DNA from: a virus
Lineage: Duplodnaviria; Caudoviricetes
Reading direction: 5' to 3' (one strand)
DNA: 64,000 nt
IMG/VR virus record: IMGVR_UViG_3300021387_001709
Span: 96,001 to 160,000 of that record
The position numbers were made by a program, and so were the translations under genes. The notes under the pieces were generated by a model. That model had not been told where the DNA came from and did no database searches. It saw only the letters and a list, made by a program, of their open reading frames with translations. Each line of letters begins with the position of its first letter. Positions within the stretch are counted from its first letter, which is position 1. Positions 16,926 to 63,888 of this stretch are shown in pieces.

Positions 16926-16928
16926 GAG

Positions 16929-22910: not shown

Positions 22911-23007
22911 TTAATAGTAGCGTATAACCATTACTTAGCTACTACCATGGTGCGCATCCACAAGTTTTTCATGTATTAGGAATAACGGCCTCGTCGGCCA
23001 AAAAATA

Positions 23008-23559: not shown

Positions 23560-23596
23560 AATAATCCATCCTTTTAATCATAGCGGTCAAGTAAAG

Positions 23597-24814: not shown

Positions 24815-24831
24815 TAATTACCTCCCGCGAA

Positions 24832-25053: not shown

Positions 25054-25087
25054 AGTTTATTTCTCCTTTTAATCCTTTAATAAATAA

Positions 25088-25393: not shown

Positions 25394-25462
25394 AATCCTT
25401 TTATCTCCTTAAAAATACTGCGGAAATCCCCATCCCGAAATCTCCGCAGCTATATCAATATA

Positions 25463-26077: not shown

Positions 26078-26104
26078 ATATAATTTACCCCCGTTAGTTA
26101 TTAA

Positions 26105-26413
26105 TTATTCCTCGCTCATTGCCTTAAGACGAGCCTCGACCTCACGGCGAACTCGTTCTTCAAAATCGGCCTCACGGTCACGCTTACGAGTCTCCATGAT
26201 CTTGTCAAGAGATGCCTGAAATTCAGGTGTATCTTCGAAAACAAAGACCGATCTTTTCTTTTCACTATCTGCGGCATCTGCCTTAATGTCAATAATTCTG
26301 TGACCCTCACGCAGAAGCTGGCGGGCAATATAACTCTTTTTAATAACCTTGCCCTTAGGGGTATTTTGTGTTTCTGTAGTTGTAGCATCTTGTTTAATTG
26401 TTCTGATTTCCAT
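26105..26413 (-). CDS. hypothetical protein
   Basis: ARQLLREGHRIIDIK...SVFVFE pattern. Confidence 0.65.
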   Translation of the reverse strand: MEIRTIKQDATTTETQNTPKGKVIKKSYIARQLLREGHRIIDIKADAADSEKKRSVFVFEDTPEFQASLDKIMETRKRDREADFEERVRREVEARLKAMSEE

Positions 26414-26449
26414 AATCGTTTTCTCCTTTTAATTCATATTTATATATTA

Positions 26450-27655
26450 TCAAAAATACATATTTGCAAACATCTTGGAAGTAGTAGATCTAACATCCTC
26501 TTCCAAATATATACAACCAAATTTCGGATTTCCTTTAAAGAAATTACACATCTTAATTAGCGAATTCTCTTTAGTATTTAGTATTTCACTCTGCTTGTAA
26601 TCCCCGCTAAATATTATTCGGCTTTCTTCCCCAAGACGAGTACCGATTAACCTAATCTGTTTTTCAGTTAAATCTTCGCTTTCCTCGCATATCATATATT
26701 GAGAAATAAAAGTCCTACCTTTAATATAATGCGGAGTTATTACTTCCAGTTGACCTCTCTGTTGAAGAGTATTAAACTCAAATTCTTTCCCATTTAATTG
26801 CTCCTCAATTGGCTTGAAATACAATCCGATTTTCTCATCTAATGTGCCGGGTAAATACCCACTCTCTCTGCCGGATGAAATGGGTTCCCTACAAACAGTA
26901 ATTCCTTGTTGATAACCTTTTTCTTGTACGGCATAAACACCATACCTTACACTTAAATAATCCTTCCCGCCGCCCGGTGTTCCCAGCAACGCACATATGG
27001 TTATATTCTGATTATTAAGTAAGTCCAGCGCACATCTTTGGAGAGAGTTCTTCCCCTTTATTATTTTTGACGGCGGTAACTTCAACGGTACAAACATTGA
27101 ACCGTCAAACCGCATTTCCTTAATAGAATCGTCGTCTGTATTATTAATAATGATATACTCATTTGTATACCATTTAGAATAGTCTAAGTTATTCATATAG
27201 TTATTAATATACTCGGTATCTCCGGTAATCTTAACGTATCCCTTATAAATTTCATCCTGATGTTCGAATTCCTCAACGTCTAATCCAAACACTTGCTCGG
27301 CAATTACGCGACATCCCACATCAAAAGTAATAAATCTAATCGGGATTACATTAGTAGAATACCACGCCGCACACGCACAAATAATATTATCCGGCGTCTC
27401 GGGTATATTGTAAGAATTGATTAATTCCTTAATGGAATTATTATAGACAATGACCTCATATTGATCTTTATGTTCGTTTAAGAATCGAATTGCCTTACGC
27501 GCGGCAGAACGAACGTCGTCCGCCTTAGACCGGCTACTTTTAATTTCTTCGAGTTCAAACAGCGTTTTATCAGAAATGATAAACGACATCTCATCAAAGT
27601 AGTCCGGATTCTCAATCAACACATTAGTGTCGAGAAATAGTTTTGCATCGCTCAC
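26450..27655 (-). CDS. phoH: PIN-domain PhoH family ATPase
   Basis: LDTNVL PIN start, GTPGGGKD, GYLPG, IKGRTF, TRLGEES, GDYKQ. Confidence 0.88.
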   Translation of the reverse strand: MSDAKLFLDTNVLIENPDYFDEMSFIISDKTLFELEEIKSSRSKADDVRSAARKAIRFLNEHKDQYEVIVYNNSIKELINSYNIPETPDNIICACAAWYSTNVIPIRFITFDVGCRVIAEQVFGLDVEEFEHQDEIYKGYVKITGDTEYINNYMNNLDYSKWYTNEYIIINNTDDDSIKEMRFDGSMFVPLKLPPSKIIKGKNSLQRCALDLLNNQNITICALLGTPGGGKDYLSVRYGVYAVQEKGYQQGITVCREPISSGRESGYLPGTLDEKIGLYFKPIEEQLNGKEFEFNTLQQRGQLEVITPHYIKGRTFISQYMICEESEDLTEKQIRLIGTRLGEESRIIFSGDYKQSEILNTKENSLIKMCNFFKGNPKFGCIYLEEDVRSTTSKMFANMYF

Positions 27656-27678
27656 GGCTCAAACCCCCTTGCGGAATA

Positions 27679-27864
27679 TTATCTTGTAAACGTAGTAACG
27701 GTTTTGGAGTTTCTGTACTCATCAAGTAACCGCATCGATTTTGGGGACGTAGTCAAATAGTAGCGTTTTGCCTTAGCATGATGCGTTGCGCTACTCATAT
27801 GGACATCATGACCGCGATTTTTGCTTCTTAAAAATTTTGCCTCATCAGCAGAAATTTTAATCAA
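27679..27864 (-). CDS. hypothetical protein
   Basis: ORF with RBS. Confidence 0.6.
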   Translation of the reverse strand: MIKISADEAKFLRSKNRGHDVHMSSATHHAKAKRYYLTTSPKSMRLLDEYRNSKTVTTFTR

Positions 27865-27902
27865 ATAATTTCACATCCTTATAATATATTTTTGGTTTTA
27901 CA

Positions 27903-27935
27903 AAAAAATAAAGGGAGTGTTGTTTCACTCCCTTT
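27903..27935 (-). terminator. intrinsic terminator after HU gene
   Basis: AAAGGGAGTG/CACTCCCTTT stem plus T-run. Confidence 0.6.
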
Positions 27936-27956
27936 AATAAATAATCAAATAAAAAA

Positions 27957-28232
27957 TTATGCGTTAACAGCTTCCTTTACGCTTGCACCAAATTTTACCT
28001 TCGGCGCTTCTTTAGCCGGAATAGCAAGAGGTTCGCCATTCTGCGGATTGCGTCCGGTATAAGCGTCTTTGTGAACCGTATAGAACTTCATACCGGTAAA
28101 CGGAGTAACGCCGTCCTCGGTCTTCATAGCCTCTACAATAGCCTCGCCGACACCGACAAGAACTTCCCTCATATCCTTCTGGGAAAGATTACATTTAGCT
28201 GCGCAAAGTTTTACAAAATCAAGTTTCTTCAT
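27957..28232 (-). CDS. hup: HU-like DNA-binding protein
   Basis: GRNPQNGEPLAIPAK..PKVKFGASVKEAVN. Confidence 0.9.
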   Translation of the reverse strand: MKKLDFVKLCAAKCNLSQKDMREVLVGVGEAIVEAMKTEDGVTPFTGMKFYTVHKDAYTGRNPQNGEPLAIPAKEAPKVKFGASVKEAVNA

Positions 28233-45796: not shown

Positions 45797-46057
45797 ATGA
45801 AGCTAAAAAACTTGTTACCCGAGATTGAGCGTAGATATGCGCTCTATGTCAAGGATAAAGAATTCCGCTATTTCCTTGCGGAAGGCAAATCCAATCATTG
45901 GTACAGAAAGGACTTTGCCACCTGGGCGGCGAACGTTCTTAAGAACGCATTGTTCAAGCCCGACGAAATTTGTGAGTGGTACAAACAATACGACTGTAAT
46001 GACACTCACATCACCACTGTGTTCAAACATTTTATTAAAGAAAGGGGAATCATCTAA
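45797..46057 (+). CDS. hypothetical protein
   Basis: RBS AAGGAG. Confidence 0.6.
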   Translation: MKLKNLLPEIERRYALYVKDKEFRYFLAEGKSNHWYRKDFATWAANVLKNALFKPDEICEWYKQYDCNDTHITTVFKHFIKERGII

Positions 46058-46217: not shown

Positions 46218-46256
46218 TTGACAAACGTCAATCTCTGGATATAATTAATTATTAAA
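46218..46256 (+). promoter_or_regulatory. sigmaA promoter overlapped by operator-like 14-mer
   Basis: TTGACA-16-TATAAT; AATTAATTATTAAA at 46243. Confidence 0.7.
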
Positions 46257-48749: not shown

Positions 48750-49358
48750 ATGATTAACAAAGTTATTAACGTAAACGAGAACCACCCGATGCACGACAAG
48801 CTCATGAATATGATGAACAACACGACCGATGAGAATCTCATCATTGTAGCGCGCAGCTACAAGAACCGCAAAAATGATGCTATTGAGCCGATCGAAGTAA
48901 AGAACGGAATTTACTTCTATGTTGCATATAATCTCGATGGTGCGCTTGCATATCCGGCGGAAATCACTCCTCACCAGATTGCAATAGCGAAATCCAACAC
49001 CGCATATAAAGCAAGACTTGGCACAATGCCGACCACACGGCTGACAGACGGTTTTGGTAGGTTTATGAAACATGTAGACGAGTTCACTGCCTGGGATGAG
49101 CCGATGATATTGCTTACCACCGACGAACTCGCGAATGGCGCAGGGATACTCCTGAATAAGTATGTGTTGTCTGCTATCAAAGAGAAACTCGGAGACTACT
49201 ACATTCTTCCGAGTAGCATCCATGAGTTACTCATTGTTCCGGCTCACATAATGAGCATCCTTGATGCAACCGAAATGGTTGTGAACGCAAATGAAACGGT
49301 AGTAACCGATGATGTATACCTCGCCGGCAGAGCATTCCATGTTGACGAGTGGTTATAA
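48750..49358 (+). CDS. DUF5688-like protein
   Basis: NGAGIL...GDYYILPSSIHELLIVP...MV..N motif. Confidence 0.7.
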   Translation: MINKVINVNENHPMHDKLMNMMNNTTDENLIIVARSYKNRKNDAIEPIEVKNGIYFYVAYNLDGALAYPAEITPHQIAIAKSNTAYKARLGTMPTTRLTDGFGRFMKHVDEFTAWDEPMILLTTDELANGAGILLNKYVLSAIKEKLGDYYILPSSIHELLIVPAHIMSILDATEMVVNANETVVTDDVYLAGRAFHVDEWL

Positions 49359-49371: not shown

Positions 49372-49638
49372 ATGTGGGAACATTACCGCTATATGGGTAA
49401 CGATTATAAAATCGTCTGGAAACAAAACGGAGAGGAGTTCGATCTCGACGCTCCGGAAAACGAGCGAATCTGGGAATCAATCGCATCCTACATGGATGAC
49501 GATATAAGGGAAAGCGTACACGCTGAGCTTGCTCCGTGTACAAATACGGAGTTCCTTAACTCGTATCTGGAAAAAGACCCCGATTTTGAGGAGAATATTC
49601 TCCATGGAGAATTCGGGATTACATGTGACTACGAATAA
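49372..49638 (+). CDS. hypothetical protein
   Basis: MDDDIRESVHAELAPCT..EFL..Y. Confidence 0.65.
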   Translation: MWEHYRYMGNDYKIVWKQNGEEFDLDAPENERIWESIASYMDDDIRESVHAELAPCTNTEFLNSYLEKDPDFEENILHGEFGITCDYE

Positions 49639-49657
49639 AAGTCGGATTTGAAGGGAG

Positions 49658-49849
49658 ATGACCACAATGGAATTTATTTATTCCACCGACATTGAACTCG
49701 CGGATATTCAGCAGACGGTTAGTTTATTAACAGAGAAACTTAATCACTACAAGGCAAATTATCCATACGCAATTTATGAAATTGATCGTATGGAAGTTGC
49801 ACTTGATGTGTTGAATGACCTTGAAAACGATGTAGCGGAGGCTGAATAA
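49658..49849 (+). CDS. hypothetical protein
   Basis: RBS GGGAG. Confidence 0.6.
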   Translation: MTTMEFIYSTDIELADIQQTVSLLTEKLNHYKANYPYAIYEIDRMEVALDVLNDLENDVAEAE

Positions 49850-50088
49850 TGAAAAGCTGGTTTGTGTATGTTATTAACAACGAGAAAATTGGCACCTGGG
49901 CAAACAATTCTGATGAAGCAGAGCGGAATCTGCGAAAGGAATATGGTGATGTTCCAATGGAGTATGTCGGTGTTAATTACGCCGGTATTGGTCCGCGACC
50001 GGACAAGGTTATTCGGTGTGGTATGAGTCCTATAGATACCATGCTCGCTTATGGGCTTGGTAATATGTTGGCTAGTCTTAGATATTGA
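49849..50088 (+). CDS. hypothetical protein, paralog of 54351-54596
   Basis: MKSWFVY.IN..KIGTWANN shared. Confidence 0.7.
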   Translation: MKSWFVYVINNEKIGTWANNSDEAERNLRKEYGDVPMEYVGVNYAGIGPRPDKVIRCGMSPIDTMLAYGLGNMLASLRY

Positions 50089-50100
50089 AGGGAGGTTGCA

Positions 50101-50328
50101 ATGGAAAAATACTACATGATTCATAGTTCACTATTCGAGCATATTGGTAACAATACATTCAAATGTATTGCATCCACCAGAAAGAACATGCTCGGCACAA
50201 TGATAATAAAACCCGATTTGCATCAGCCCTGGGTTCATTCGGTCACATCCAAAGATGAAGCAATCCACTGGATGAAAGAGGATGCGTATTGGGATAACGT
50301 TGAAGTATATACACTTGAAGGGAGATGA
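50101..50328 (+). CDS. hypothetical protein
   Basis: RBS GGAGG. Confidence 0.6.
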   Translation: MEKYYMIHSSLFEHIGNNTFKCIASTRKNMLGTMIIKPDLHQPWVHSVTSKDEAIHWMKEDAYWDNVEVYTLEGR

Positions 50329-50332
50329 TACA

Positions 50333-50614
50333 ATGATAAATATCAAAGCTAATAAATGGTCGTTAATTAACTACTTCGACGTCTGGGGAAACGCAGACGA
50401 CGGTTACTTTGTAAACAACCAGTGCGTTGAGGTAGACGACCTCAATATCACTGAGGACGCAAACGAAAAGGATATTCTCCAATATCTTGAGTCGATTGGA
50501 TTCCTCGGTACTTCCGACCGCCGGAGAGTTCGGCTTGAGGATTCTGGTAACATGATTGAGATCTACGCGGTCAAGGGGCATTATCCCCTTGGTTGCTTGA
50601 TGATGAACTATTAA
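50333..50614 (+). CDS. hypothetical protein
   Basis: DVWGNADDGYFVN motif. Confidence 0.65.
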   Translation: MINIKANKWSLINYFDVWGNADDGYFVNNQCVEVDDLNITEDANEKDILQYLESIGFLGTSDRRRVRLEDSGNMIEIYAVKGHYPLGCLMMNY

Positions 50615-50629
50615 AAAGGAGATAACGCT

Positions 50630-50818
50630 ATGAGGAGAGCAACAAATATCATGTGGGATTATGATGAGGATGAGTTTGGTGGAACGGCATTATTTTTAGG
50701 CTTGCCCGATCACGTTGACATTCCAAGCGAAATTGACGACGAAGATATTGCTGACTATTTATCGGATACTTATGACTTTTGCGTATTTGTATTTGATATT
50801 GAGGAGGTGGCATCATGA
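50630..50818 (+). CDS. hypothetical protein
   Basis: RBS AAGGAG. Confidence 0.6.
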   Translation: MRRATNIMWDYDEDEFGGTALFLGLPDHVDIPSEIDDEDIADYLSDTYDFCVFVFDIEEVAS

Positions 50819-51198
50819 GAATTATGAACTGCTCTATTCCGAATTGTGTACCGGAATATAATCGTTCTCGCTTCGAAGATGAAGCCCACGAAGCGGAAAA
50901 GGAATGGGAACGGCTGACATGGTACGAGAAAAACAAAGCGTACCGCCGGCAGAAGTACATCGACGGTTGCAATGAACTTCAGTTCTATCCAACGGAATGT
51001 GAGAAATGTCCATACGGAGAGGAAGCGATGCCGGACTCCGAGATGGACGATATTCCCACCATGATTTGTAGCAACTGGAAAAACTGCCAGGTGTACCGAA
51101 ATGATGCAGACGAACATTTTCCGACAGTACCATGGGAAGAATATTGTAGCTGGAGAGAAGAGTATGTAGAAAAGCTTAAGAAGGGAGAAGCGGAATAG
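50815..51198 (+). CDS. hypothetical protein ending TAG TGA
   Basis: Coupled ORF. Confidence 0.6.
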   Translation: MRIMNCSIPNCVPEYNRSRFEDEAHEAEKEWERLTWYEKNKAYRRQKYIDGCNELQFYPTECEKCPYGEEAMPDSEMDDIPTMICSNWKNCQVYRNDADEHFPTVPWEEYCSWREEYVEKLKKGEAE

Positions 51199-51500
51199 TG
51201 AAAGAAAGAGAATATGTCATATACATGGCACCAATGAGTGTGAGTTACACATTCAGAGATTTTGATTTCGCCATGGCTCATGATTGGAAGATGGCTGATT
51301 ACGTTCCGGTTTGGCGCGGAACAATATCAAGCGAAACGGTAAACGGAGCGCTTGAAAGACTGTTTGTTATATTCAATACAGACGAACGTCCGTCACAGTA
51401 TTGTGGAAGATCACTTAGCATGTCAGATGTGGTAGTGCTTGATGGAATTCCGTACTACTGTGACAACATTGGATGGAGCGAATGTCCGAGAGATTATTAA
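51198..51500 (+). CDS. YodL-like domain protein
   Basis: LERLFVIFN..RP..Y.GRSLSMSDVVVLDG..YYCD.IGW. Confidence 0.75.
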   Translation: MKEREYVIYMAPMSVSYTFRDFDFAMAHDWKMADYVPVWRGTISSETVNGALERLFVIFNTDERPSQYCGRSLSMSDVVVLDGIPYYCDNIGWSECPRDY

Positions 51501-51518
51501 ACGAAAGGAGACTACCAC

Positions 51519-51728
51519 ATGAGAGTAACAACTTACCGAAATAACAGAAATCCACACAAATTCCTCGATGTCAAGCATACCGCCGACCGTCACTACATGT
51601 GGCGGCAGCGAATGGTGTTTGATAACGGAGTAACCAATCATGTCGGTACTCCCAAAGGTGGATTTCGCCGGCAGAGTAAGGCAACTATTGATGAAGTGTT
51701 GATGGATTATGAGGAGGTAATAGCATGA
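51519..51728 (+). CDS. hypothetical protein
   Basis: RBS AAGGAG. Confidence 0.6.
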   Translation: MRVTTYRNNRNPHKFLDVKHTADRHYMWRQRMVFDNGVTNHVGTPKGGFRRQSKATIDEVLMDYEEVIA

Positions 51729-52000
51729 ATATGAGTTATTGCAGATACGAGAATACACTCCATGATCTTAGAGATTGCATCAATGATGCACTTGCCCATG
51801 TAAATGAAGAAGCGAAATACCCAGTGAGCAAGTCGGAAATTGGTTGCTTCCGTCGGATGGTAAAAGAATTTTACCAGATGATGGATTTCTGTGACATGAT
51901 TAACGATGACGGCACACTCAATGAAGAGGAACTCGATAATTGCTGCTCTATGATGGAACACGGATATGATGTGGATGACGATGATGAAGGGTGGTGGTAA
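51725..52000 (+). CDS. hypothetical protein
   Basis: NMSYCRYENT..DL.DC motif. Confidence 0.65.
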   Translation: MNMSYCRYENTLHDLRDCINDALAHVNEEAKYPVSKSEIGCFRRMVKEFYQMMDFCDMINDDGTLNEEELDNCCSMMEHGYDVDDDDEGWW

Positions 52001-52002
52001 TT

Positions 52003-52197
52003 ATGGAAACGATTGAAAAGGAAGTATATGTCTTATATGGCTATATTTTCGACCCGAGTCATTACACTGTATTCGGTGTATATGAGAACTTGCAAGACGC
52101 AAAAGAGAAATATGCGGAGTTAAAAAAGTATGAAAAATATGGCGCAAATATAAAAGACAAAGTTATTAAAGCAGTGATGAATGCAGAGGAGAAATGA
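52003..52197 (+). CDS. hypothetical protein
   Basis: ORF in array. Confidence 0.55.
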   Translation: METIEKEVYVLYGYIFDPSHYTVFGVYENLQDAKEKYAELKKYEKYGANIKDKVIKAVMNAEEK

Positions 52198-52412
52198 TTA
52201 TGGATTTTGAAAAGGAAATCGAAGATAGCATCAAGGAAGCTATTAAAAACAATAGCTACATCGAAGCCGAAGACGGCGATGGAGTTCTTTTCCCAACGGT
52301 TGAGAACGTCCGGACATTTAAAGAAGCGAGTATTCTGACGACTGACAAGGGAGTTGTAATTGATTTGAATGACGGCTCCACCGTGTATCTTACAATCCAG
52401 GCATATAAATAA
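52194..52412 (+). CDS. hypothetical protein
   Basis: VRTFKEASILTTDKGVVI motif. Confidence 0.65.
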   Translation: MIMDFEKEIEDSIKEAIKNNSYIEAEDGDGVLFPTVENVRTFKEASILTTDKGVVIDLNDGSTVYLTIQAYK

Positions 52413-52424
52413 GGAGGATTAGCT

Positions 52425-52727
52425 ATGAAAATGACGCCGGAGTTTAGAGAGTTCCTTGAGGAATTTGAATTGACACATTATTTTGACCTTGGTTACGAAC
52501 GGGACTTGCTCGTAGCATATGAATTATCCAAGAGAGTTCCATCAATCAAAACATTCGAGGACTTCGATGCTTACGCAGAGGTTCTCGAATCAAAGAAACT
52601 TGACCATGACATAGACTACTATATGTACAACAAGGCACTTGAAAAAGTGTTAGGTCATCCGGTGTTTAATGACGAGGATGAAGATGAAGACTTTTGGGAT
52701 AAGATTATTGACGAAGAAGGGAGATAA
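52425..52727 (+). CDS. hypothetical protein
   Basis: RBS AGGAGG. Confidence 0.65.
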   Translation: MKMTPEFREFLEEFELTHYFDLGYERDLLVAYELSKRVPSIKTFEDFDAYAEVLESKKLDHDIDYYMYNKALEKVLGHPVFNDEDEDEDFWDKIIDEEGR

Positions 52728-52731
52728 TACT

Positions 52732-52932
52732 ATGTTGACGATTGACAATTTACTCGACTACACAAACCTTGAAGGCCCAGTAAGAGTAACTCGCTGGACG
52801 GATGATGGTTGCGAAGTTCTCTTTGAGGATGACGCATGGGAACTCAGCCGTGTCGATGCTGATTGGATGAACACGGAAATTCGAGTTATATTCCCTGGTA
52901 CCGACGGAAAACTTGTTATTGAGGTAGCATAA
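52732..52932 (+). CDS. hypothetical protein
   Basis: RBS GGGAG. Confidence 0.6.
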   Translation: MLTIDNLLDYTNLEGPVRVTRWTDDGCEVLFEDDAWELSRVDADWMNTEIRVIFPGTDGKLVIEVA

Positions 52933-52948
52933 GAAGGGGGGTGATTAC

Positions 52949-53425
52949 ATGACATTTAGAGATAGCGAAATAAACCAGATAGAAATCGACATGAATACTT
53001 TATGGATTTATGATGAAGAACAGCAAAGGGTAGTGGTTGATTTTTATCCAGGATATTCAATACGGAGACGAGTACTGGATTTTCTCGGCTTGGATTTGGA
53101 TAACATCTTCACCGACATGTGGCTTGATGCCACGGCGATGATCGATCCGGTTCGCCGGATTGTAACGGGATTGTACTTCGAGGTTCCGCTTGACGAGTAT
53201 AACGGGATGCCGCCAACGGAGTTGTCACTGTCGATTACTAACTATCCCGAGGGTAAGTTGTTCTTCGACCGCCTTATGGAAACAAGCAACGGCGGTCTTG
53301 AAGAATTTATTAAAGAGTATGATGACGCTGCTCCAAAACTTAAGCATCATACGCTTGACCCAATACTCTATAAAACAAATATCCTCGGCGAATTTGGAAC
53401 CGGGAAAGCTTACGAAAGGAAATGA
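52949..53425 (+). CDS. hypothetical protein
   Basis: ORF with RBS. Confidence 0.65.
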   Translation: MTFRDSEINQIEIDMNTLWIYDEEQQRVVVDFYPGYSIRRRVLDFLGLDLDNIFTDMWLDATAMIDPVRRIVTGLYFEVPLDEYNGMPPTELSLSITNYPEGKLFFDRLMETSNGGLEEFIKEYDDAAPKLKHHTLDPILYKTNILGEFGTGKAYERK

Positions 53426-53429
53426 TTAT

Positions 53430-53648
53430 ATGATTACAGCAAAAGGAATTAAAAAAGCGGTTCGCGCTAATGAAAGATACATCGACATTCCGAGCCGCTC
53501 CCATATGGATAACATGGTTTATTTTGTCGCTGACTTATTAAAGGAATCCGGTGACGTGGAAACAGCGGCTAAGGTGAGGGAATTCTATGGAAAACTGGAA
53601 GACATGGATACAGCCAAACTTGTGAAAGAAAGAATCTGGATTGGGTAA
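53430..53648 (+). CDS. hypothetical protein
   Basis: RBS AAAGGA. Confidence 0.55.
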   Translation: MITAKGIKKAVRANERYIDIPSRSHMDNMVYFVADLLKESGDVETAAKVREFYGKLEDMDTAKLVKERIWIG

Positions 53649-53685
53649 CAATGAAAACCGAGTTTAATCAAAAGGAGAAATCATT

Positions 53686-53970
53686 ATGAGAAAATACGTA
53701 GTAGTTAAGACACACAACTTCGACACAGAAACAGAAGCGACAGAGTTTAATGACTATAGAAAAGCAACCGCTTATCTTCACTGGATGTGGGAAACATATC
53801 TCAATGAAGAGATTGCAAATGATAGCGATCTTGACGAAGAATGGTGTTATCACGAAGAAACCTATGGAAGGATTCGGTGGAAAGACGGAGATTATACAGA
53901 ATTCAATCTGATTGAAGTTTATGAACCTAGGGAAGACTTCCCGGTTAACTGGGAAAAATATGCAATGTAA
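53686..53970 (+). CDS. cassette protein, paralog of 54038-54322
   Basis: HNFD...KA.AYLHW.WE.Y.NEEI shared. Confidence 0.7.
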   Translation: MRKYVVVKTHNFDTETEATEFNDYRKATAYLHWMWETYLNEEIANDSDLDEEWCYHEETYGRIRWKDGDYTEFNLIEVYEPREDFPVNWEKYAM

Positions 53971-54037
53971 TAAAACAACGATTTCATAGGGAAGCATACC
54001 ACAATATATAGTATATAAATGAAAGGAGATGCACGAT

Positions 54038-54322
54038 ATGATGTATGCAGTAGTAATTAATCACAACTTTGATGCCGATACAAGAGTAACCGTGTTTGAT
54101 AATTATGATAAGGCAAAGGCTTATCTTCACTGGATTTGGGAAAAATATTATAACGAGGAGATAGAGGCCGAGAGTCATCTGAATGAAGCAGATTGTTGGC
54201 ATCAGGATGAACTCGCAAAAGTAACATGGGATGATGGGTGTTACACATATTTTGAACTTGTCAGTCCTTATGAAAAACCCGAGGAAGAATTCAATCAGAT
54301 TGATTGGAAACGCTACCTGTAA
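54038..54322 (+). CDS. cassette protein, paralog of 53686-53970
   Basis: Shared motifs. Confidence 0.7.
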   Translation: MMYAVVINHNFDADTRVTVFDNYDKAKAYLHWIWEKYYNEEIEAESHLNEADCWHQDELAKVTWDDGCYTYFELVSPYEKPEEEFNQIDWKRYL

Positions 54323-54350
54323 TAAAACGATTATTGAAGGGAGAACGCCT

Positions 54351-54596
54351 ATGAAATCTTGGTTTGTGTATCTTATCAACGGAAAAAAGATTGGCACCTG
54401 GGCGAACAACACAGAAGAAGCAGAGAGAAATCTGAGAACTGAATATGGTGATGTACCAATGGAATTCATTGGTATTAACTACGGAAAACTTGGCGCACAG
54501 CCAGAGAAAGTAATCCATCGTGGAATGAGTGCGGTGGACACAATGATTGCAACTGGAATGATGAACATGCTTGTTGGTCTTAGATATGGGAGGTGA
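54351..54596 (+). CDS. cassette protein, paralog of 49849-50088
   Basis: Shared motifs. Confidence 0.7.
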   Translation: MKSWFVYLINGKKIGTWANNTEEAERNLRTEYGDVPMEFIGINYGKLGAQPEKVIHRGMSAVDTMIATGMMNMLVGLRYGR

Positions 54597-54600
54597 TCAC

Positions 54601-54771
54601 ATGGATAAAAATAAACTGCGTGTAAAAGTAGAGGCAATAGCGGAAGCATTTGAAAATTATTGTGAAACACTTGATGCAACAGAATATGAGTTATTCTATG
54701 ACGCACTTAATGATGTACTTGCACTTTGTGATGGAAATGATGTTTCGGCAATTTGTAACGACAACAAATAA
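54601..54771 (+). CDS. hypothetical protein
   Basis: RBS GGAGG. Confidence 0.55.
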   Translation: MDKNKLRVKVEAIAEAFENYCETLDATEYELFYDALNDVLALCDGNDVSAICNDNK

Positions 54772-54799
54772 AACGGTTATTTGAAAGGAGACACAAGAT

Positions 54800-55009
54800 A
54801 TGGAAAACAATATTAAACTTTACAACGTAATCGGAACTGATGACCTTGAAGGCACGACATTTTGCAGATGTACGTCTTATGAGAAAGCACTCAATGCTTT
54901 AGAACTTTTAGAAGACCAGGGATTTGATGGGTTACTTGATATAGTTCAGGATGAAATGCCTGTTGATGTTATAGAAATTGACGGAGTTCTTGTGGAATTA
55001 GAAGACTAA
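54800..55009 (+). CDS. cassette hypothetical protein
   Basis: Bounded by 18-bp sites. Confidence 0.65.
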   Translation: MENNIKLYNVIGTDDLEGTTFCRCTSYEKALNALELLEDQGFDGLLDIVQDEMPVDVIEIDGVLVELED

Positions 55010-55042
55010 TAAAAGATAGGTTTGATGAAGGGAGATGATTCT

Positions 55043-55315
55043 ATGGCAATAACTCGTACATGGAAAGTATACGGTGCGGACGGTCATCGGCAGCGTGAAA
55101 GTTTTGGTCCATCGGTCAAGTGGGATTGGTCAAATAAGGAAGACGGTGTTCGGATTTTCGAGGCTAATAACTTCGATAAGACCGGCACACATGATTACTC
55201 GATTATCCGTATTACTCGTAACACTTGGGAAGAATGTGACGAGGAAATGGAAGGGCAGATAAGTGATGGATACTTTGAAAATTCAAGAGTTGGCAAGGTA
55301 GTTGAGGTTATTTAA
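55043..55315 (+). CDS. cassette hypothetical protein
   Basis: WKVYGADGHRQRESF...GQISDGYFEN. Confidence 0.7.
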   Translation: MAITRTWKVYGADGHRQRESFGPSVKWDWSNKEDGVRIFEANNFDKTGTHDYSIIRITRNTWEECDEEMEGQISDGYFENSRVGKVVEVI

Positions 55316-55333
55316 AGAGAGGAGAATAGCAAA

Positions 55334-55564
55334 ATGTCAATAGGCTCATTAGTAAAGGTAATTGTTGACATGCCGGACGGTTGCTATAACACCCATGTTT
55401 ATGGTGAAATCGGCGTTATAAGCGAAATATACCGCTATGATAACGGCACGTATGATTATACCGTCCATAATAAATATGGCGATTTTGTGTACGGTCGCGA
55501 TCAGATAAGGGAACTTACAGACAAGGAGTGTAGAGATGCACTGCATGATATGTTGATTAATTAA
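55334..55564 (+). CDS. hypothetical SH3-like protein
   Basis: IGSLVKV...GEIGVI pattern. Confidence 0.6.
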   Translation: MSIGSLVKVIVDMPDGCYNTHVYGEIGVISEIYRYDNGTYDYTVHNKYGDFVYGRDQIRELTDKECRDALHDMLIN

Positions 55565-55576
55565 GGAGATAGCATT

Positions 55577-55906
55577 ATGTTGAATCCGAAACAGAATCTT
55601 ATCCGATTAATAAAAGAAATCAGTTCGAAGAGCGACGCAGAAACGATTGTATCAGATACAATGTACGGTATATTTTCAACACCAGGTCAGTTATATTCGT
55701 TAGCAGATAATACTAATAAAGAGTTGTGTATTGAGTTCCTTTCGACTGACTACAAAAGAAAAGAAGATATCTATGGTAGCAATCCGAACGTAAACGAGTA
55801 TGCTCTCGTTGTGTTCTGGAATGATGATATTGTATATGATGAATACTTCCAGCACGATGTTACGGATAAGATGATAGAAGAAGTGAAAGAGATTTGGTAT
55901 CAATAA
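55577..55906 (+). CDS. hypothetical protein
   Basis: RBS AAGGAG. Confidence 0.65.
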   Translation: MLNPKQNLIRLIKEISSKSDAETIVSDTMYGIFSTPGQLYSLADNTNKELCIEFLSTDYKRKEDIYGSNPNVNEYALVVFWNDDIVYDEYFQHDVTDKMIEEVKEIWYQ

Positions 55907-55930
55907 AAAACAGCTTTTATAGAAGGGAGA

Positions 55931-56206
55931 ATGCAAATGAAATATGTTGTAACCGCATACGTTGATGAGAACAAGAAGTACGAGGTAAATGTAACTGTAA
56001 AGCGTAATGCCAAAAAGAGAACGGTATTTATTAAATGCATGAATGCGGTTGGTCAGATGTTAGTAAATGATAAAATCCTCACCACAGGCAAATACGGATT
56101 TGAAACTCCGTGTTTAAATAATGGCTGTCTTGGTGCTGCATGGTTTAACGATCCATTCATTAATATAACTATTCAAGAAGAAACCGGTGCCTGGATAGCA
56201 CTCTAA
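55931..56206 (+). CDS. cassette hypothetical protein
   Basis: Bounded by junction sites. Confidence 0.65.
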   Translation: MQMKYVVTAYVDENKKYEVNVTVKRNAKKRTVFIKCMNAVGQMLVNDKILTTGKYGFETPCLNNGCLGAAWFNDPFINITIQEETGAWIAL

Positions 56207-56239
56207 TGAAACCGGTTTTATGAAGGGAGAAGTGGTCAC

Positions 56240-56443
56240 ATGAAGAATGAATTGGTAATCTGGATTGACGGGACTATGTCATATATTTATTTCAAGACAA
56301 ATCAGACAACAGCCGAACATGCTCTTGCAGAATTCGACGTATTGATGGATCGACTTGGAGTAGATACATGCAATTTAGGTATCTCTGAAATTGAATTAAG
56401 AGATGCAAACACAAACGAAACTATTGACAAAGTTGTGTACTAA
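56240..56443 (+). CDS. cassette hypothetical protein
   Basis: Bounded by junction sites. Confidence 0.65.
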   Translation: MKNELVIWIDGTMSYIYFKTNQTTAEHALAEFDVLMDRLGVDTCNLGISEIELRDANTNETIDKVVY

Positions 56444-56473
56444 TAAAACTAGCCTTTGAGAGGAGATGATAAT

Positions 56474-56665
56474 ATGACAGTAAAGGAACTCACAAATATT
56501 CTCAATACTTGCGATCCGGATATTCAGGTTGTGATTTTCCAGAAAGGAAATAATGATCCATATTCCGTAAGATACGGAATTAAATCTGTAGAACAGGTTG
56601 AGAATTATTCATTGCATGACGAAGATGAATGGCCGTATACAGTAGAAATCAGAATAGGTAGATAA
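56474..56665 (+). CDS. hypothetical protein (MTVKEL family)
   Basis: MTVKEL..IL...DPD..V. Confidence 0.65.
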   Translation: MTVKELTNILNTCDPDIQVVIFQKGNNDPYSVRYGIKSVEQVENYSLHDEDEWPYTVEIRIGR

Positions 56666-56684
56666 AATGAATGGAGATGATTAC

Positions 56685-56852
56685 ATGAAAACATATATCA
56701 TTGATTACGTTGTTGGTAACACATATAAAGTAAAGAAAATAAAAGCGGAAACGGTTGAACAGGCAATCAGGAAAGCAAGAGTTAAATCGATTGTTGATAT
56801 TAACATTGAAGAATACATCGTGAAAGATAAGTATCAGCTGAGAGACTTTTAA
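56685..56852 (+). CDS. hypothetical protein
   Basis: RBS GGAG. Confidence 0.55.
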   Translation: MKTYIIDYVVGNTYKVKKIKAETVEQAIRKARVKSIVDINIEEYIVKDKYQLRDF

Positions 56853-56880
56853 TAAACGTTTAATGAAGGGAATTTATAAC

Positions 56881-57075
56881 ATGCCAAAAGAAATAGAACT
56901 GAGAACAAACTTAGACTGGGCCGGAGAATTCCAGACGATGGCAGAAAGAATGAGACTTTGTGGATCCGAAGAGCAGATGTATAGACAGCTTCAGAAGTTT
57001 AAAGAAGAATTCAATAGCGAGTACGGAAGACTTAGCAGAACGCAGCGAAGTAAAACCGGGTTTAGATGGAAATAA
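56881..57075 (+). CDS. cassette hypothetical protein
   Basis: Bounded by junction sites. Confidence 0.6.
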   Translation: MPKEIELRTNLDWAGEFQTMAERMRLCGSEEQMYRQLQKFKEEFNSEYGRLSRTQRSKTGFRWK

Positions 57076-57105
57076 AACACACGTTTGATGAAAGGAGAGA
57101 ATTAT

Positions 57106-57516
57106 ATGTCAACAAGATCTTATGTAGGAATTATTAAAGATGGTATGGTTAAATATGGATATCATCATTGTGATTCACATTTAGAATCACTTGGTATTGA
57201 GTTATTCAACATCAAGACGGAATCTGAATTGCTCACTAAAATTGATGCTCTTGCGGAATTTGATATGGGTGGTTGTGTATCTGTAAATGATTATTTCAGA
57301 ATACCAAAAGAAGATGTATTCATGGAATTCTGTTATGGATTCAATGTTGATGATAATGAATGGTATGTAAGTTCATGTCATTTTATAAATCAGGACAAAA
57401 TGTACAAGCTGACTGAGTTGATTAAAAATGATGAAGAAATGGAACATTATCTTGATATGTATTATGAAAGATATAGAAAAGAAATATTAAATATAATTAG
57501 AAATGGGATTAAATGA
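57106..57516 (+). CDS. cassette protein (MSTRS..G family)
   Basis: MSTRSYVG...YHHCD; bounded by 18-bp sites. Confidence 0.7.
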   Translation: MSTRSYVGIIKDGMVKYGYHHCDSHLESLGIELFNIKTESELLTKIDALAEFDMGGCVSVNDYFRIPKEDVFMEFCYGFNVDDNEWYVSSCHFINQDKMYKLTELIKNDEEMEHYLDMYYERYRKEILNIIRNGIK

Positions 57517-57544
57517 AAATCAAGTTTGATAGGAGGAAAACATT

Positions 57545-58226: not shown

Positions 58227-58592
58227 ATGAGAGGAAAAATTGTAGAACTGGTTGACAGCTTCAATAAAGATAAAACATATTGCAAATACATTAGCAATAG
58301 GGGTATCAATTATCAGTTGCTCGAAGGTATGACAATTGGTAAAGGTCGTTTTACCTCGAATATGGTGTTTATCATTTTAGAAATAGACTGTAATTTAGAT
58401 TCCCACACGGAAAGCGAATTATTTAAACTTTGTGATTCGTGGTCTCAATTGGTCGATTTCCATTATATGGCCGGTGACGAAGAGACATATGGACTTGAAG
58501 AGGAGTATATAAAAGACGTTATTGATAAATATGAGGAAGACCATAAGGAACTGATTGACTTCATAATTGCTAACAACATAGAAACTTATTAA
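58227..58592 (+). CDS. hypothetical protein
   Basis: RBS GGGAG. Confidence 0.65.
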   Translation: MRGKIVELVDSFNKDKTYCKYISNRGINYQLLEGMTIGKGRFTSNMVFIILEIDCNLDSHTESELFKLCDSWSQLVDFHYMAGDEETYGLEEEYIKDVIDKYEEDHKELIDFIIANNIETY

Positions 58593-59144: not shown

Positions 59145-59176
59145 AAAGGAACTGGCTTCGGCTAGTTCCTTTTTTA
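59145..59176 (+). terminator. intrinsic terminator
   Basis: AAAGGAACTGGC-TTCG-GCTAGTTCCTTTTTT. Confidence 0.75.
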
Positions 59177-61629: not shown

Positions 61630-62580
61630 ATGACTGGAAGACAGGAAGATGAAATAAAACTAAAAAATAAAATACAAAAAATGTTAATTGACAAACCTAT
61701 TATATTAAAAAAATATTATGCGTATATGGGGGAGAATAAAACAGAAAAAACAAAAAATTTGTATATATTAGGTCTTATAAGATATAATAATTTTTTAATT
61801 ATAAATAATCATACCGTAGAAGATTTTGATTATTTGCAAAATCAGAAAAAAACAAATATTAACGAATACATAGAAGAGTTAAAATATAGAAATGTTAATG
61901 GAAAAATAATAAATAACAGCAGAAGTAATATTAGGACTAATTTATATGCGGTAAAATCTTTTTTTGAGTTTTTGGAGGATGAGGAATATATTACGAAGAA
62001 TCCATTTTATAATTTTAAGTTCCCAAAATTAAATGAAATTATTGAAGTTCGTCCGATAGAAAAGTCTGATATTAAAGAAATCAAAGCAAATATTCGAGCT
62101 TTTAGTAAAAATCCAGAAAGAGACGAGGCCATATTTGTTATAGGTATTAAAACTGGTTTGCGAGCATCTGCAATAACAGAAATAAATATCTCGGATATTA
62201 ATTGGGAAGATCATACGATAAAGGTAACAGAAAAAGGTAACGTAACTAGATTAGTTTATTTTGGTGAAAATACTGAAACTGCTTTGATTAAATGGCTTGA
62301 TGTTAGAAAAGAAACTCCAAATTGCGACGCGTTGTTTATTAATAATAGGGGGCAAAGAATTAATTATAGTATTATCAATAGAATGTTAAAAAAATATGGA
62401 CTGGGCAATGTTCCGCATAATTTGAGAAAAACATATGGGACAAATCTTTATGATGAGTCTGGGGATATTTATTTAACTGCAGAAGGGCTAGGGCATAAAA
62501 ATATTCAAAACACGAAAAGATACGCGCGAGTATCAGAAAAGAAGAAATTACAAGCAGCAAGATTAGTAGATAAAATATAA
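61630..62580 (+). CDS. tyrosine recombinase (SPbeta YopP-like position)
   Basis: TGLRASA, EKGN, PHNLRKT, LGHKNIQNTKRY. Confidence 0.88.
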   Translation: MTGRQEDEIKLKNKIQKMLIDKPIILKKYYAYMGENKTEKTKNLYILGLIRYNNFLIINNHTVEDFDYLQNQKKTNINEYIEELKYRNVNGKIINNSRSNIRTNLYAVKSFFEFLEDEEYITKNPFYNFKFPKLNEIIEVRPIEKSDIKEIKANIRAFSKNPERDEAIFVIGIKTGLRASAITEINISDINWEDHTIKVTEKGNVTRLVYFGENTETALIKWLDVRKETPNCDALFINNRGQRINYSIINRMLKKYGLGNVPHNLRKTYGTNLYDESGDIYLTAEGLGHKNIQNTKRYARVSEKKKLQAARLVDKI

Positions 62581-62649: not shown

Positions 62650-63888
62650 ATGATAAACGGCGAAGCAAGCAGAGCGGAACTAAACAGTTATCTTAATGAT
62701 AAGCTGATGGAAATGACTAACCGGCGCGAAAGGATGGAACTGTACAAACAGATTTATTCCAGGTTCAACATTTCTATTGAAGTAACTACCGATTACTTCA
62801 CATTCAAGAAGGACATAGCGGAAGCATCCAACTTTGAGGTGTTCGCATTCTTGTATTTTATTAAAAGAAACCGTCTTCATTTATACTTCACAGACAATGA
62901 AATCGAAGTGTTTAGCAACGAAAAGGTAGAAGATAAAACTATCACATTTCCGTTGGTATTCAAGGACATTGTCCAGGTAAGTGAAGATCAGTGGATCGGG
63001 CGTACATCATTTCAAGAGCTGATGGCAATGAAGGACGCTCGCTTGATTAACTACGACGAAAACGAGCAGCGAACATTCCGTCACATCAAATCCGGCAACA
63101 CGGAAATCATGCGAGTGTTCATCAACAAGAAGTCCGTCCAGGAGATTAAGGAAGCACTGAAAACAGGCCGCTACATCCCGGATGACATTACACTCAATAT
63201 CCCACAGGGATCGGAATTTAGTTTTAGTAACAACACGCTCAAAATATATAGTTTGCTGAATGGTAAGTTCAATATTATTGACGGCTATCATCGCTGGCTT
63301 GGAATGGCGGAGATATATAACTTCAATAAAGAGTTTGATTATCCGATGGAAATCAGATTTGTTAACTACTCAACGGAGAAAGCAAATCAGTTTATCTATC
63401 AGAAGGATCAAAAAACTCAGATGAAAAAATCTGACTCAGCGTCTTATAATCAGTATAACATTGCAAATCGTGTGGTCAAGCGACTCAACGAAGACCCAAT
63501 GAGCAATCTCCAGGGTATGATTGCTCGTAATGACGGGCTAATTAAAGAAGCTGACCTCGCAGCCGTAATTGATTCTTTCTATGTTAAGGGAAAAGAAATC
63601 GGCAACGAAACTTTAGCGGTTGTAACTATTAAAAATGACATTCAAAAGAAATTTAATTCAGTATCTGAGGTAAATCCCGATTATTTAAATAAGAAGTATA
63701 CCGTGAAGGATTTAATAATCCTAATGTTTGTATTTACATCCGACGTAGAAGTTAATAAGTATGATGAACTGATTGATTATCTAGTTTCAAAGAAAATTAA
63801 TTCTTCATATTATACATTTAATCGCGGCTATGTAAGAAAAAAGGTTATCAATGAGTTAAATAATGCGTTAGCAGAATGGAGGCGCTAA
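62650..63888 (+). CDS. DndB/DGQHR-like protein (SPbeta YopQ-like)
   Basis: NEQR, ITLNI, IIDGYHR motifs. Confidence 0.75.
   Translation: MINGEASRAELNSYLNDKLMEMTNRRERMELYKQIYSRFNISIEVTTDYFTFKKDIAEASNFEVFAFLYFIKRNRLHLYFTDNEIEVFSNEKVEDKTITFPLVFKDIVQVSEDQWIGRTSFQELMAMKDARLINYDENEQRTFRHIKSGNTEIMRVFINKKSVQEIKEALKTGRYIPDDITLNIPQGSEFSFSNNTLKIYSLLNGKFNIIDGYHRWLGMAEIYNFNKEFDYPMEIRFVNYSTEKANQFIYQKDQKTQMKKSDSASYNQYNIANRVVKRLNEDPMSNLQGMIARNDGLIKEADLAAVIDSFYVKGKEIGNETLAVVTIKNDIQKKFNSVSEVNPDYLNKKYTVKDLIILMFVFTSDVEVNKYDELIDYLVSKKINSSYYTFNRGYVRKKVINELNNALAEWRR

Follow-up and report, generated by a model that had tools for sequence, protein, structure and literature searches.

In lambdoid phages, mosaic joints lie at gene boundaries, and the classical 'linker' or 'boundary sequence' idea proposed short conserved sequences there as crossover points. 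Integrons recombine at attC sites of 57-141 bp, which carry R''-L''/L'-R' cores (RYYYAAC ... GTTRRRY) and adopt a single-stranded fold. For the PeSL (promoter-early stem-loop) cassettes of T4-type phages, mini-circles were shown, and exchange was put down to recombination between the repeated motifs rather than the action of a site-specific enzyme (Arbiol et al., 2010, PMC2839356; Comeau et al., 2014, PMC4122927). Repeated elements are also known as regulatory sites: SPBRE, a 15-bp element found in about ten promoter regions per genome of SPbeta-like phages, is bound by the repressor MrpR, whose family has a recombinase fold (PMC10516654).

The locus compared here with these systems lies in a 64,000-nt window (positions 96,001 to 160,000 of IMG/VR record IMGVR_UViG_3300021387_001709) of a 189.8-kb phage genome. 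Nine ATRAAA-N6-TTT matches are clustered on the + strand at 49.6-57.5 kb (49635-57530). A pattern scan returned all nine of the 6-6-6 sites that an initial annotation of this DNA had listed there, each on or near a stop codon just 5' of a ribosome-binding site, and three variants with shorter spacers (54322, 56206 and 56852) were also seen as described. The sites begin at, or in frame with, the preceding stop codon and finish 0-4 nt 5' of the Shine-Dalgarno sequence (SD). The window has 20 matches to ATRAAA-N6-TTTNAD, where shuffled sequence gave a mean expectation of 1.77 and 0 of 100 shuffles reached 20. For the whole-linker pattern there were 24 occurrences against 6.5 expected, 18 of them within two + strand small-gene arrays. 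Another cluster of this linker is found beyond the window, at ~16.4-28.2 kb of the genome; the motif is restricted to both small-gene arrays and has about background frequency in the late arm. The linker is a feature of the early or accessory small-gene arrays in a single clade of related rumen phages (~65-205 kb), whose hosts seem to be Firmicutes.

At the head of the small-gene operon is a sigma-70-type promoter (46218-46245, + strand; TTGACA-16-TATAAT, 12/12 matches), and at its end a strong intrinsic terminator with a 12-bp stem followed by a T-run (59145-59172, + strand). Pattern matching detected no comparable promoter between the two, in agreement with the earlier remark that the units have no evident promoter of their own; likewise, a pattern search gave no promoter-like match inside the short linkers and no terminator-like match at the linkers. 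A different AT-rich motif, ATTATTAAR, was found at recognisable promoters. The sequence supports the view that the region is an array of shuffled small accessory genes within one long, predicted transcription unit. The earlier division of this array into units of 1-3 genes holds for 53.6-57.5 kb only, since the sites at 49635 and 53651 are separated by some 19 genes.

The linker is a gene-to-gene spacer of ~27-33 nt. Its 5' part consists of the stop codon, in many cases doubled in frame (TAA/TGA then T[AG]A), and an A-run; the centre of 3-7 nt is loosely conserved as (a/g)AcAnG; and the 3' part is a T-run, TTT(G/T)AT, followed by an extended SD, GAAGGGAGATGAT, ~8-9 nt 5' of the ATG. At 12 of 13 positions this SD agrees with the complement of the Bacillus-type 16S rRNA 3' tail, and GGAG is found 12-13 nt upstream of the ATG in 33/43 linkers. 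Common to all linkers are the ends, TAATAAAA on the left and TTTGATGAAGGGAGAT on the right. Because the T[AG]A of the left arm is offset from the stop codon by 0 (23 linkers), +3 (19) or +6 (1), the left arm is in frame with the stop in 43/43 linkers. By length, gene junctions sort into three groups: genes that overlap, gaps of 10-20 nt that hold just an SD, and gaps of 27-33 nt that hold a linker.

Two properties that had been ascribed to the 6-bp core did not survive this comparison. Its length is not fixed, being 6 in 26 of 43 linkers and 3 (n=2), 4 (n=6), 5 (n=8) or 7 (n=1) in the rest; nor does it differ every time, since it has a consensus and the same cores (GATAGG, CGGTTA, CAACGA, nACACG, AACAGC, ATCAAG and GTCGGA) recur in related phages. 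The description of the arms as imperfect inverted repeats is right in that an A-run faces a T-run, but the arms pair no better than permuted partners (5.05 vs 4.97 of 6 pairs, P ~0.1, no covariation), and the inverted-repeat look arises because the consensus itself sets the A-run opposite the T-run. RNA structure prediction for 44 linkers indicated none (mean z -0.06, minimum free energies 0 to -7.5 kcal/mol), and the linkers had no match among Rfam families.

The individual linkers, all on the + strand, illustrate how they are reused. Linker 1 (49636-49666; stop TAA, AAA, GTCGGA, TTTGAAGGGAG, ATG at 49667) marks the point, 49635, at which homology with relative L003 precisely begins. Linker 2 (53646-53685) reads TAA CAA TGA AAA CCGAG TTTAAT and then SD, with the TGA in frame with the stop, and in relatives B and E its unit is joined directly to the CAACGA unit. 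The CAACGA linker itself is a long form (53968-54037), in which TAA TAAAA CAACGA TTTCAT and the SD are separated by a ~40-nt insert that contains a TATA-like box and a small palindrome. The gene pairs that flank the unit of the CGGTTA linker (54769-54799) are not the same in L001, L002 and L003, and the GATAGG linker (55007-55042; tandem stop TAA TAA) has five different downstream contexts among relatives. Further along are linkers with cores AACAGC (55904-55936; right arm TTTTAT), CTAGCC (56441-56473; tandem stop), CACACG (57073-57105) and ATCAAG (57514-57544; stop TGA); in relatives B and C, the CACACG core and right arm are the final codons of the preceding gene. Short cores are found at 54320-54350 (TAA TAAAAC GA TTATTGAAGGGAG), 56204-56239 (TAA TGAAA CCGG TTTTATGAAGGGAG) and 56850-56880 (TAA TAAACG TTTAATGAAGGGAA; likely start 56881), and homology with L003 starts within the right arm of the last of these, at 56862.

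We compared nine related phage arrays (471 genes in 293 families, from home-made gene calls that missed some genes). Gene order is heavily shuffled across them. Co-circulating relatives share entire linkers of 25-30 nt without a single difference, and identical linkers (GACACG, GATAGG, CGGTTA and CAACGA) stand between different gene pairs, with flanks that differ on both sides; one upstream gene is followed by different linkers, and one linker has different upstream and downstream genes among the relatives. Motif-bearing junctions are preferential synteny breakpoints and the least conserved adjacencies in the nine arrays: 9% of the motif junctions kept their adjacency, compared with 16% of those that are short and 30% of those that overlap, and in the close trio A/B/E the figures were 1/15 against 30/53 (P = 8e-4). 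This hot-spot statistic is confounded, since motif junctions concentrate where the array varies most, and its counts are phylogenetically non-independent.

The mapped crossovers are scattered over ~35 nt 5' of the start codon, with the SD as the largest class. The ends of homology blocks peak at -15..-6 from the ATG and have secondary peaks at -25..-16 and -35..-26. The expectation that breakpoints of gene gain and loss would fall in the N6 core was not borne out when related genomes were aligned: the core zone (-30..-21) holds 23/165 of the 5' ends and 17/159 of the 3' ends of homology blocks (11-14%), and the mode is in the SD. Among nine clean indels, five crossed in the SD, including one with a 16-17-nt direct repeat flanking the gene at 58227-58592; one each crossed at the left edge of the motif, at the arm/core boundary and in the region of the coding end and stop, and one was ambiguous. 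A tenth case, a composite linker at 53672, also has its crossover at the arm/core boundary. At several of the clean indels, a 6-6-6 site is missing from one end or from both.

The PeSLs are among the closest parallels to this array. In both cases, a short conserved intergenic motif is repeated in hyperplastic regions of small ORFan genes, and indels, replacements and transpositions between related phages start and stop at the motif. On the other hand, a PeSL comprises a strong sigma-70 early promoter and a stem-loop terminator, whereas our linkers lie mid-operon with neither, are shorter (27-33 nt) and consist of stop codon(s), A-run, T-run and extended SD. The hosts are apparently Firmicutes and not Gram-negative bacteria. 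A TATA-like box and a small palindrome are seen here only in long-form linkers, such as the one at 53968-54037. With respect to the boundary sequences of lambdoid phages, the present motif is a defined, repeated and statistically enriched one that coincides with the least conserved adjacencies.

The likeness to an integron lies in small accessory genes, mostly without promoters of their own, that all point one way downstream of one promoter, in imperfect inverted repeats that bound the units, and in gene content that varies between relatives. Three proteins with matches to PF00589 (phage integrase family) are encoded in the genome. As reported earlier, two tyrosine recombinases lie in the window: an Xer-like one that is conserved in relatives, ~4 kb downstream of the array (61630-62580, + strand), and a second one 48 kb from the array (944-1960, - strand). 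The top matches of both are generic XerC/XerA-type models, under those models' own cut-offs, and with the integron-integrase model TIGR02249 they scored 28.6 bits (61630) and 16.1 bits (944) against a cut-off of 265, so that we rejected both as integron integrases. Unlike an integron, the array is therefore without an IntI-type integrase. Unlike attC, the linkers are 27-33 nt long, their consensus TAATAAAA(g)ACAnGTTTGAT fits neither RYYYAAC nor GTTRRRY, and their folding z is -0.06; moreover, the site and the upstream ORF do not move together as in an integron cassette, and crossovers occur at no single fixed position. Membership in the IntI/attC integrons was rejected on the integrase score, the attC form and the cassette co-movement; the promoterless genes behind one predicted promoter did agree with an integron.

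We suggest, from the sequence of the linker, that its primary role is probably translational punctuation. The in-frame stop or stops would firmly terminate the upstream gene, an AU-rich unstructured spacer would separate the neighbouring genes, and the extended SD would provide strong independent initiation of the next gene. Because the linkers share their ends and are identical over 25-30 nt between relatives, they can also serve as short-homology patches. The reading that we prefer, with moderate confidence, is that the motif is a linker for translational punctuation that at the same time offers a patch of short homology at which gene modules can be exchanged. Recombination or template switching at the linkers, on either side of the centre, would insert, delete, duplicate or transpose single genes or blocks of 2-3 genes. 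Exact matches between linkers within one genome have a median of 6-8 nt and a maximum of 17. Matches this short do not exceed the length that homologous recombination normally requires, so another mechanism, for instance template switching or an enzyme of a different kind, may do the joining. A Sak4-type AAA_24 protein is encoded at 169912-170490 of the genome.

The initial annotation had proposed a phage system that shuffles accessory genes by a recombinase, of which the shuffled gene order and the breakpoints at motif junctions are supported and the exchange in the N6 core is not. Stated in full, a phage tyrosine recombinase would act on the sites as core-type targets with inverted 6-bp arms, would tolerate a heterologous 6-bp overlap as in Tn916, and would excise and re-insert gene cassettes. 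Although a dyad consensus with a modal 6-nt centre, the lowest adjacency conservation at motif junctions, the presence of one linker between different gene pairs, and three PF00589 proteins, with the conserved Xer-like one close to the array, all speak for it, as do two or three crossovers at the arm/core boundary (57077, the 53672 composite and 56862), we regard it as very improbable. At a core-type site of the Xer/Cre/Int or Tn916-like kind, the overlap is fixed at 6-8 bp; here the spacer is 3-7 nt and other than 6 in 17/43 linkers, breakpoints peak in the SD and only 11-14% of them lie in the core zone, and the five indels that cross in the SD do so at junctions of which at least one lacks a 6-6-6 site. 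Each arm has just ~5 informative bases, the left one coincides in every case with an in-frame stop codon, the right one merges into the SD, and neither flanking gene retains 'its' site. Both recombinases are of a generic Xer-like type, with 16-29 bits where the integron-integrase model has its cut-off at 265, and the neighbouring gene that starts at 63891 is MrpR-like, of a family of repressors that share a recombinase fold (PMC10516654). A broader form, in which the dyad ATnAAA-~6 nt-TTTnAT is bound by an Xer-like or MrpR-like protein that promotes cassette exchange with tolerant heterologous centres, is likewise highly doubtful. If true, it would mean a phage-borne system of gene capture and shuffling mechanistically distinct from attC integrons, and the SD crossovers would be a separate background class of events.

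It is also conceivable, though rather unlikely, that the dyad is a regulatory recognition site on DNA or RNA and that the shuffling there is a side effect; a dimeric phage protein could use it as an operator or roadblock to turn the array off, or a translational repressor or a processing endonuclease could act on it in the polycistronic mRNA. The perfect symmetry of ATnAAA-N6-TTTnAT with its invariant A before the stop codon, the confinement of the motif to two small-gene arrays and its conservation across the clade while flanking genes differ would suit such a site, and MrpR/SPBRE is a precedent for a recombinase-fold repressor on repeated elements (PMC10516654). However, our sites lie mid-operon, away from promoters, whereas SPBRE is promoter-associated at about ten regions per genome, a contrast in position. 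In addition, the centre varies in length, the arms lack covariation and predicted RNA structure, the recognisable promoters carry ATTATTAAR instead, and the in-frame stop and adjoining SD explain much of the conservation. Alternatively, the motif may have no function of its own: a single ancestral leader would have been carried along with genes that were duplicated or imported, its copies would have diverged, and common descent and AT-rich composition alone would account for the resemblance. Paralogous array genes do carry related flanks (53686/54038 with downstream TAATAAAAC, and 45797/49849/54351), and a core consensus is expected of one diverged sequence. This explanation seems quite improbable in view of the identical linkers between unrelated gene pairs in several genomes with both flanks differing, the strict phasing with stop codon and SD, the quantised linker lengths and the roughly tenfold enrichment over shuffles.

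Finally, some details of the stop region deserve mention. The consensus ATnAAA-N6-TTTnAT is a perfect dyad, and the base 5' of the stop codon is A in 37/37 cases; this symmetry and the invariant A go beyond the obvious needs of termination and initiation and would suit a dimeric DNA-binding protein. The left arm is TAG in 0 cases, and TAG terminates just 19 of the 471 called genes, a scarcity at gene ends that agrees with TAG recoding in this genome.

The ATRAAA-N6-TTT repeat is real and statistically solid. The window contains 20 copies of the pattern ATRAAA-N6-TTTNAD where 1.77 are expected, and none of 100 shuffles reached 20. The nine 6-6-6 sites of the initial annotation are all plus-strand matches between 49635 and 57530, and its three variants with shorter spacers are likewise present in the sequence. 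With a stricter pattern for the whole gene junction, or linker (stop-like T[AG]AA, 3-7 nt, YTT, Shine-Dalgarno (SD) sequence and start codon), 24 matches were found genome-wide versus 6.5 in Markov simulations. Eighteen of the 24 are located in two plus-strand arrays of small genes, namely the array of the window and a second one that spans roughly 16.4-28.2 kb of the genome, and the minus-strand late arm carries the pattern at background level. The second cluster, outside the window at 16423-28219 of the 189.8-kb genome (G000), consists mainly of ATGAAA-N6-TTTCAT, and four successive genes at G000 17361-18125 have one linker each. The strict motif with TTTGATGAAGGGAG as its right side was found only in about 12 IMG/VR contigs of 67-205 kb, and this version of the motif is therefore specific to one clade.

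The source record is a single IMG/VR virus of 189,811 bp with a completeness estimate of 98%; the window covers its bases 96001-160000. An exact-protein look-up found the same phage in a sheep rumen assembly, the sole further match being a 2.2-kb Logan contig with identical gene order. No GenBank phage matched the array by megablast or blastn, and the relatives compared here are all IMG/VR contigs. The 6-6-6 sites fall in a plus-strand stretch containing some 80 small genes. A perfect sigma-70 promoter (TTGACA-16-TATAAT, plus strand, 46218-46245) and a strong intrinsic terminator (plus strand, 59145-59172), both found by pattern matching, place the sites at 49.6-57.5 kb within one long operon of roughly 55 genes, each of 45-200 codons. 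This small-gene region is an "ORFanage". A search of 20 array proteins against Pfam or PHROGs yielded just three named families, AcrIC5, DUF5688 and YodL, and two weak PHROGs matches of unknown function. The 88-aa product of the plus-strand gene at 49372-49638, directly upstream of the first linker, belongs to the AcrIC5 anti-CRISPR family of Pfam (E = 1.1e-11, 45 bits against a cut-off of 27), and DUF5688 was a profile match at 48750-49358. The plus-strand gene at 51198-51500 encodes a 100-aa member of a YodL-like family (E = 7e-11) and, because YodL of Bacillus perturbs MreB and cell shape, is likely by analogy a host-takeover gene.

To describe the linkers, genes were called in nine non-redundant related arrays, that is, the window and eight IMG/VR contigs. 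Their junctions form three length groups: overlapping ones, those of 10-20 nt with an SD only, and a separate class of 27-33 nt bearing the motif. The sites had been placed on or next to stop codons, and their left arm indeed provides an in-frame stop in all 43 unique linkers of this class, often as the second of a tandem pair; its T[AG]A is offset from the upstream stop by 0 (23 linkers), +3 (19) or +6 (1). The A/G alternation in this arm is explained by the two stop codons TAA and TGA. TAG never serves as the left arm in the 43 linkers, and it terminates only 19 of the 471 genes called in the nine arrays. The gene at 50815-51198 ends with TAG TGA (51196-51201), and its orthologue in the related contig E has TGG TGA there. 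These observations suggest that TAG is avoided or read through in the early arm. Neither the fixed 6-bp length nor the ever-changing sequence first attributed to the core holds: the centre is 6 nt in 26 of the 43 linkers and 3-7 nt in the others, it follows the consensus (a/g)AcAnG, and identical centres recur across genomes. The motif does stand just before a ribosome-binding site, as GAAGGGAGATGAT comes 0-4 nt after the T-run, and GGAG lies 12-13 nt upstream of ATG in 33 of 43 linkers. This GAAGGGAGATGAT segment agrees at 12 of 13 positions with the complement of the Bacillus-type 16S rRNA 3' tail, and is therefore an extended SD.

The arms were also regarded as imperfect inverted repeats. 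They pair well (5.05 of 6 positions), yet permuted left and right arms do about as well (4.97, P about 0.1), and at the sole variable arm pair the commonest combination is an A/G mismatch. The "inverted repeat" is an A-run opposite a T-run, with a stop codon at one end and the other end merging into the ribosome-binding site. An RNA hairpin at the linkers was ruled out (mean z of -0.06 versus shuffled sequences, arms without covariation), and an Rfam search of the linkers matched no family. A sigma-70 promoter within the motif was ruled out by a hexamer scan with inspection of spacing, and an intrinsic terminator by a terminator scan. Moreover, stop closure in all three frames is not distinctive as the purpose of the motif, being found in 20 of 43 motif linkers and 12 of 40 equally long junctions without the motif.

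Cassette-like shuffling is real. The nine arrays contain 471 genes of 293 families in strongly rearranged order, in agreement with the shuffling of accessory genes that the initial annotation had proposed. The neighbours of families 3, 5, 14, 15 and 16 vary between phages, and a fixed terminal block (Xer-like recombinase, 412-aa protein and MrpR-like protein) closes the array in most relatives. Compared by blastn, the window and its closest relative, contig L003 (relative B), share gene-sized blocks of 74-96% identity with unrelated DNA between them. Identical linkers, centre included, separate different gene pairs in different relatives. The GACACG linker occurs in five genomes with five upstream and five downstream families, all different, and the GATAGG, CGGTTA and CAACGA linkers occur at five, six and five junctions, respectively. 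One upstream gene can be followed by different linkers and one downstream gene preceded by different linkers; neither flank retains its own. Motif junctions are also special as to neighbour conservation, though this statistic has caveats. Where the upstream family was present in the other genome, the downstream neighbour was retained at 9% of motif, 16% of short SD-only and 30% of overlapping junctions. In the close trio A/B/E it was retained at 1 of 15 motif junctions versus 30 of 53 short (P = 8e-4) and 36 of 52 overlapping ones (P = 2e-5), although such adjacencies are not independent events and the motif junctions cluster where the array varies most.

At L003:9950-9990, and likewise in relatives C, F and I, the linker core and right arm (ACACAGTTTTGATGAAGGGAG) form the final codons and stop of a 73-aa gene (family 16); in front of one and the same downstream gene, this stretch can thus be either coding sequence or non-coding linker. 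The array also contains paralogous genes of about 70-78% DNA identity. Among those at 45797-46057, 49849-50088 and 54351-54596, similarity begins exactly at the ATG and stops at the stop codon. The tandem pair at 53686-53970 and 54038-54322 also has the downstream TGTAATAAAAC in common, as expected from unequal exchange between linkers.

Breakpoints show a clear association with the entire linker. In 37 close orthologue pairs whose upstream neighbours differ, upstream homology stops 0-34 nt before the ATG. Among nine clean indels with conserved flanks, the crossover is in the SD for five, none of which requires a pair of 6-6-6 sites; one is at the left edge of the motif (49635), one at an arm/core boundary (57077), one in the coding end/stop region and one is unclear. 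One of the five SD events concerns the gene at 58227-58592, whose presence varies and which is flanked by two copies, 16-17 nt long, of TTATTAAAGAA(G/T)GGAG. In a tenth case, a fused ACCGAG-CAACGA linker in relatives B and E corresponds to the window gene 53686-53970, with the crossover at the arm/core boundary and only the bases AAA shared. For all pairwise blast blocks, 5' ends peak at -15 to -11 and 3' ends at -10 to -6 from the ATG, namely at the SD, with secondary peaks over the right and left arms; the centre zone (-30 to -21) holds 23 of 165 5' ends and 17 of 159 3' ends. With the mode at the SD, few block ends at the centre and most clean-indel crossovers elsewhere, the breakpoints are therefore largely unrelated to the N6 core, where exchange had been supposed to occur. 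Exact matches between linkers of one genome have a median of 6-8 nt and a maximum of 17. Within one genome, the idea that longer homology at motif linkers explains the hot spots finds little support (median longest shared run 6-8 nt, versus 6-7 nt). Better recombination substrates are probably the identical linkers of 25-30 nt common to co-infecting relatives.

The best-supported reading of these sequences, and a fairly probable one, is that the linker is a standardised element of translational punctuation made up of a tandem stop, an unstructured AU-rich spacer and an extended SD; it would double as a short-homology patch because its ends are common to many junctions. The signals closing one gene and opening the next would be standardised as a common linker. 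A gene bearing it could be inserted, lost, duplicated or moved with its expression undisturbed, and the short-homology patch would let accessory genes be exchanged as modules. Two features, the perfect symmetry of the consensus and the A that invariably precedes the stop codon, are not fully covered by such punctuation, and for this reason we retain, as rather unlikely, the idea that the dyad is a regulatory site, either an operator, a roadblock or a recognition site at the RNA level.

That the 6-6-6 sites are recombinase sites is very improbable. The genome has three PF00589 matches, with recombinase-fold proteins at 944 and 61630 of the window and at genome 41835, and the two tyrosine recombinases reported in the window are present but are generic Xer-like proteins, not of the integron type (28.6 and 16.1 bits with the integron-integrase model, cut-off 265). 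The 412-aa protein at 62650-63888, downstream of the Xer-like recombinase, matches the DGQHR domain only weakly (26.9 bits, under the cut-off), and a recombinase-fold, MrpR-like protein with MrpR domains extends from 63891 to the window end. According to PMC10516654, MrpR of SPbeta has a recombinase fold but no catalytic activity, and acts as a repressor by binding a repeated element of 15 bp at about ten promoters. Given this precedent and the generic Xer-like scores, more ordinary roles are likely for the recombinase-fold proteins of the phage. No RecT, RecA or ERF was found in the genome, the only match of the classical-recombinase search being an AAA_24 (Sak4-type) protein at genome 169912-170490, and no convincing inverted repeats that might be other targets were seen near the recombinase genes. 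In integrons, the ORF and attC travel together, whereas here linkers differ and stay with neither flank. With this, the low integron-integrase scores and the crossovers outside the core, an integron-like site-specific mechanism is unsupported.

The closest described system is the promoter-early stem-loop (PeSL) cassette of T4-type phages (PMC2839356, PMC4122927). Location, ORFan content and breakpoint behaviour are common to both, but PeSLs are promoter-plus-terminator units and the present linkers have neither element. On present evidence, the locus is not a new recombination system; the sequence variant is new, and this kind of phage mosaicism is already known. As a concrete case from outside the T4 group, defined at the sequence level, it illustrates how an accessory "ORFanage" is kept fluid in large phages, and the common linker helps account for gene-precise mosaicism in uncultured rumen and gut phages. 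The linker is also a practical marker for the bounds of exchangeable modules, and modular polycistronic constructs for Firmicutes could be designed on the same rule.

Long-form linkers only (e.g. 53968-54037) are extended by about 40 nt that hold a TATA-like box and a small palindrome; this insert is located after the TTTCAT arm at 53984-54020 of the window and at 7566-7605 and 8231-8270 of the related contig L001. The boxes are gTATAag, aTATAac and gTATAga, and the palindromes show compensatory changes (CACAA/TTGTG, ATAC/GTAT, ACAC/GTGT). A conserved leader, GAAAGGAGATACAAGAT, lies 3' of the insert and precedes genes of different families. The insert could be an internal promoter plus an operator or 5' hairpin, in which case long-form linkers would be nearer to a true PeSL. 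A second junction motif, WTTATTAAR (often AATTAATTATTAAAGGAG), runs in the direction of the genes and was counted 33 times, with 11 expected; it may be an analogue of SPBRE, the MrpR operator of SPbeta-like phages, or a second class of linker. In the window it is found on the plus strand at 43994, 44802, 46248, 51493, 58202, 58860, 59208, 60047 and 62622. It lies directly 3' of the -10 box at the clearest promoters (46218-46256, and genome 1934, 12160 and 24064), and in several genes it forms the final codons and stop.
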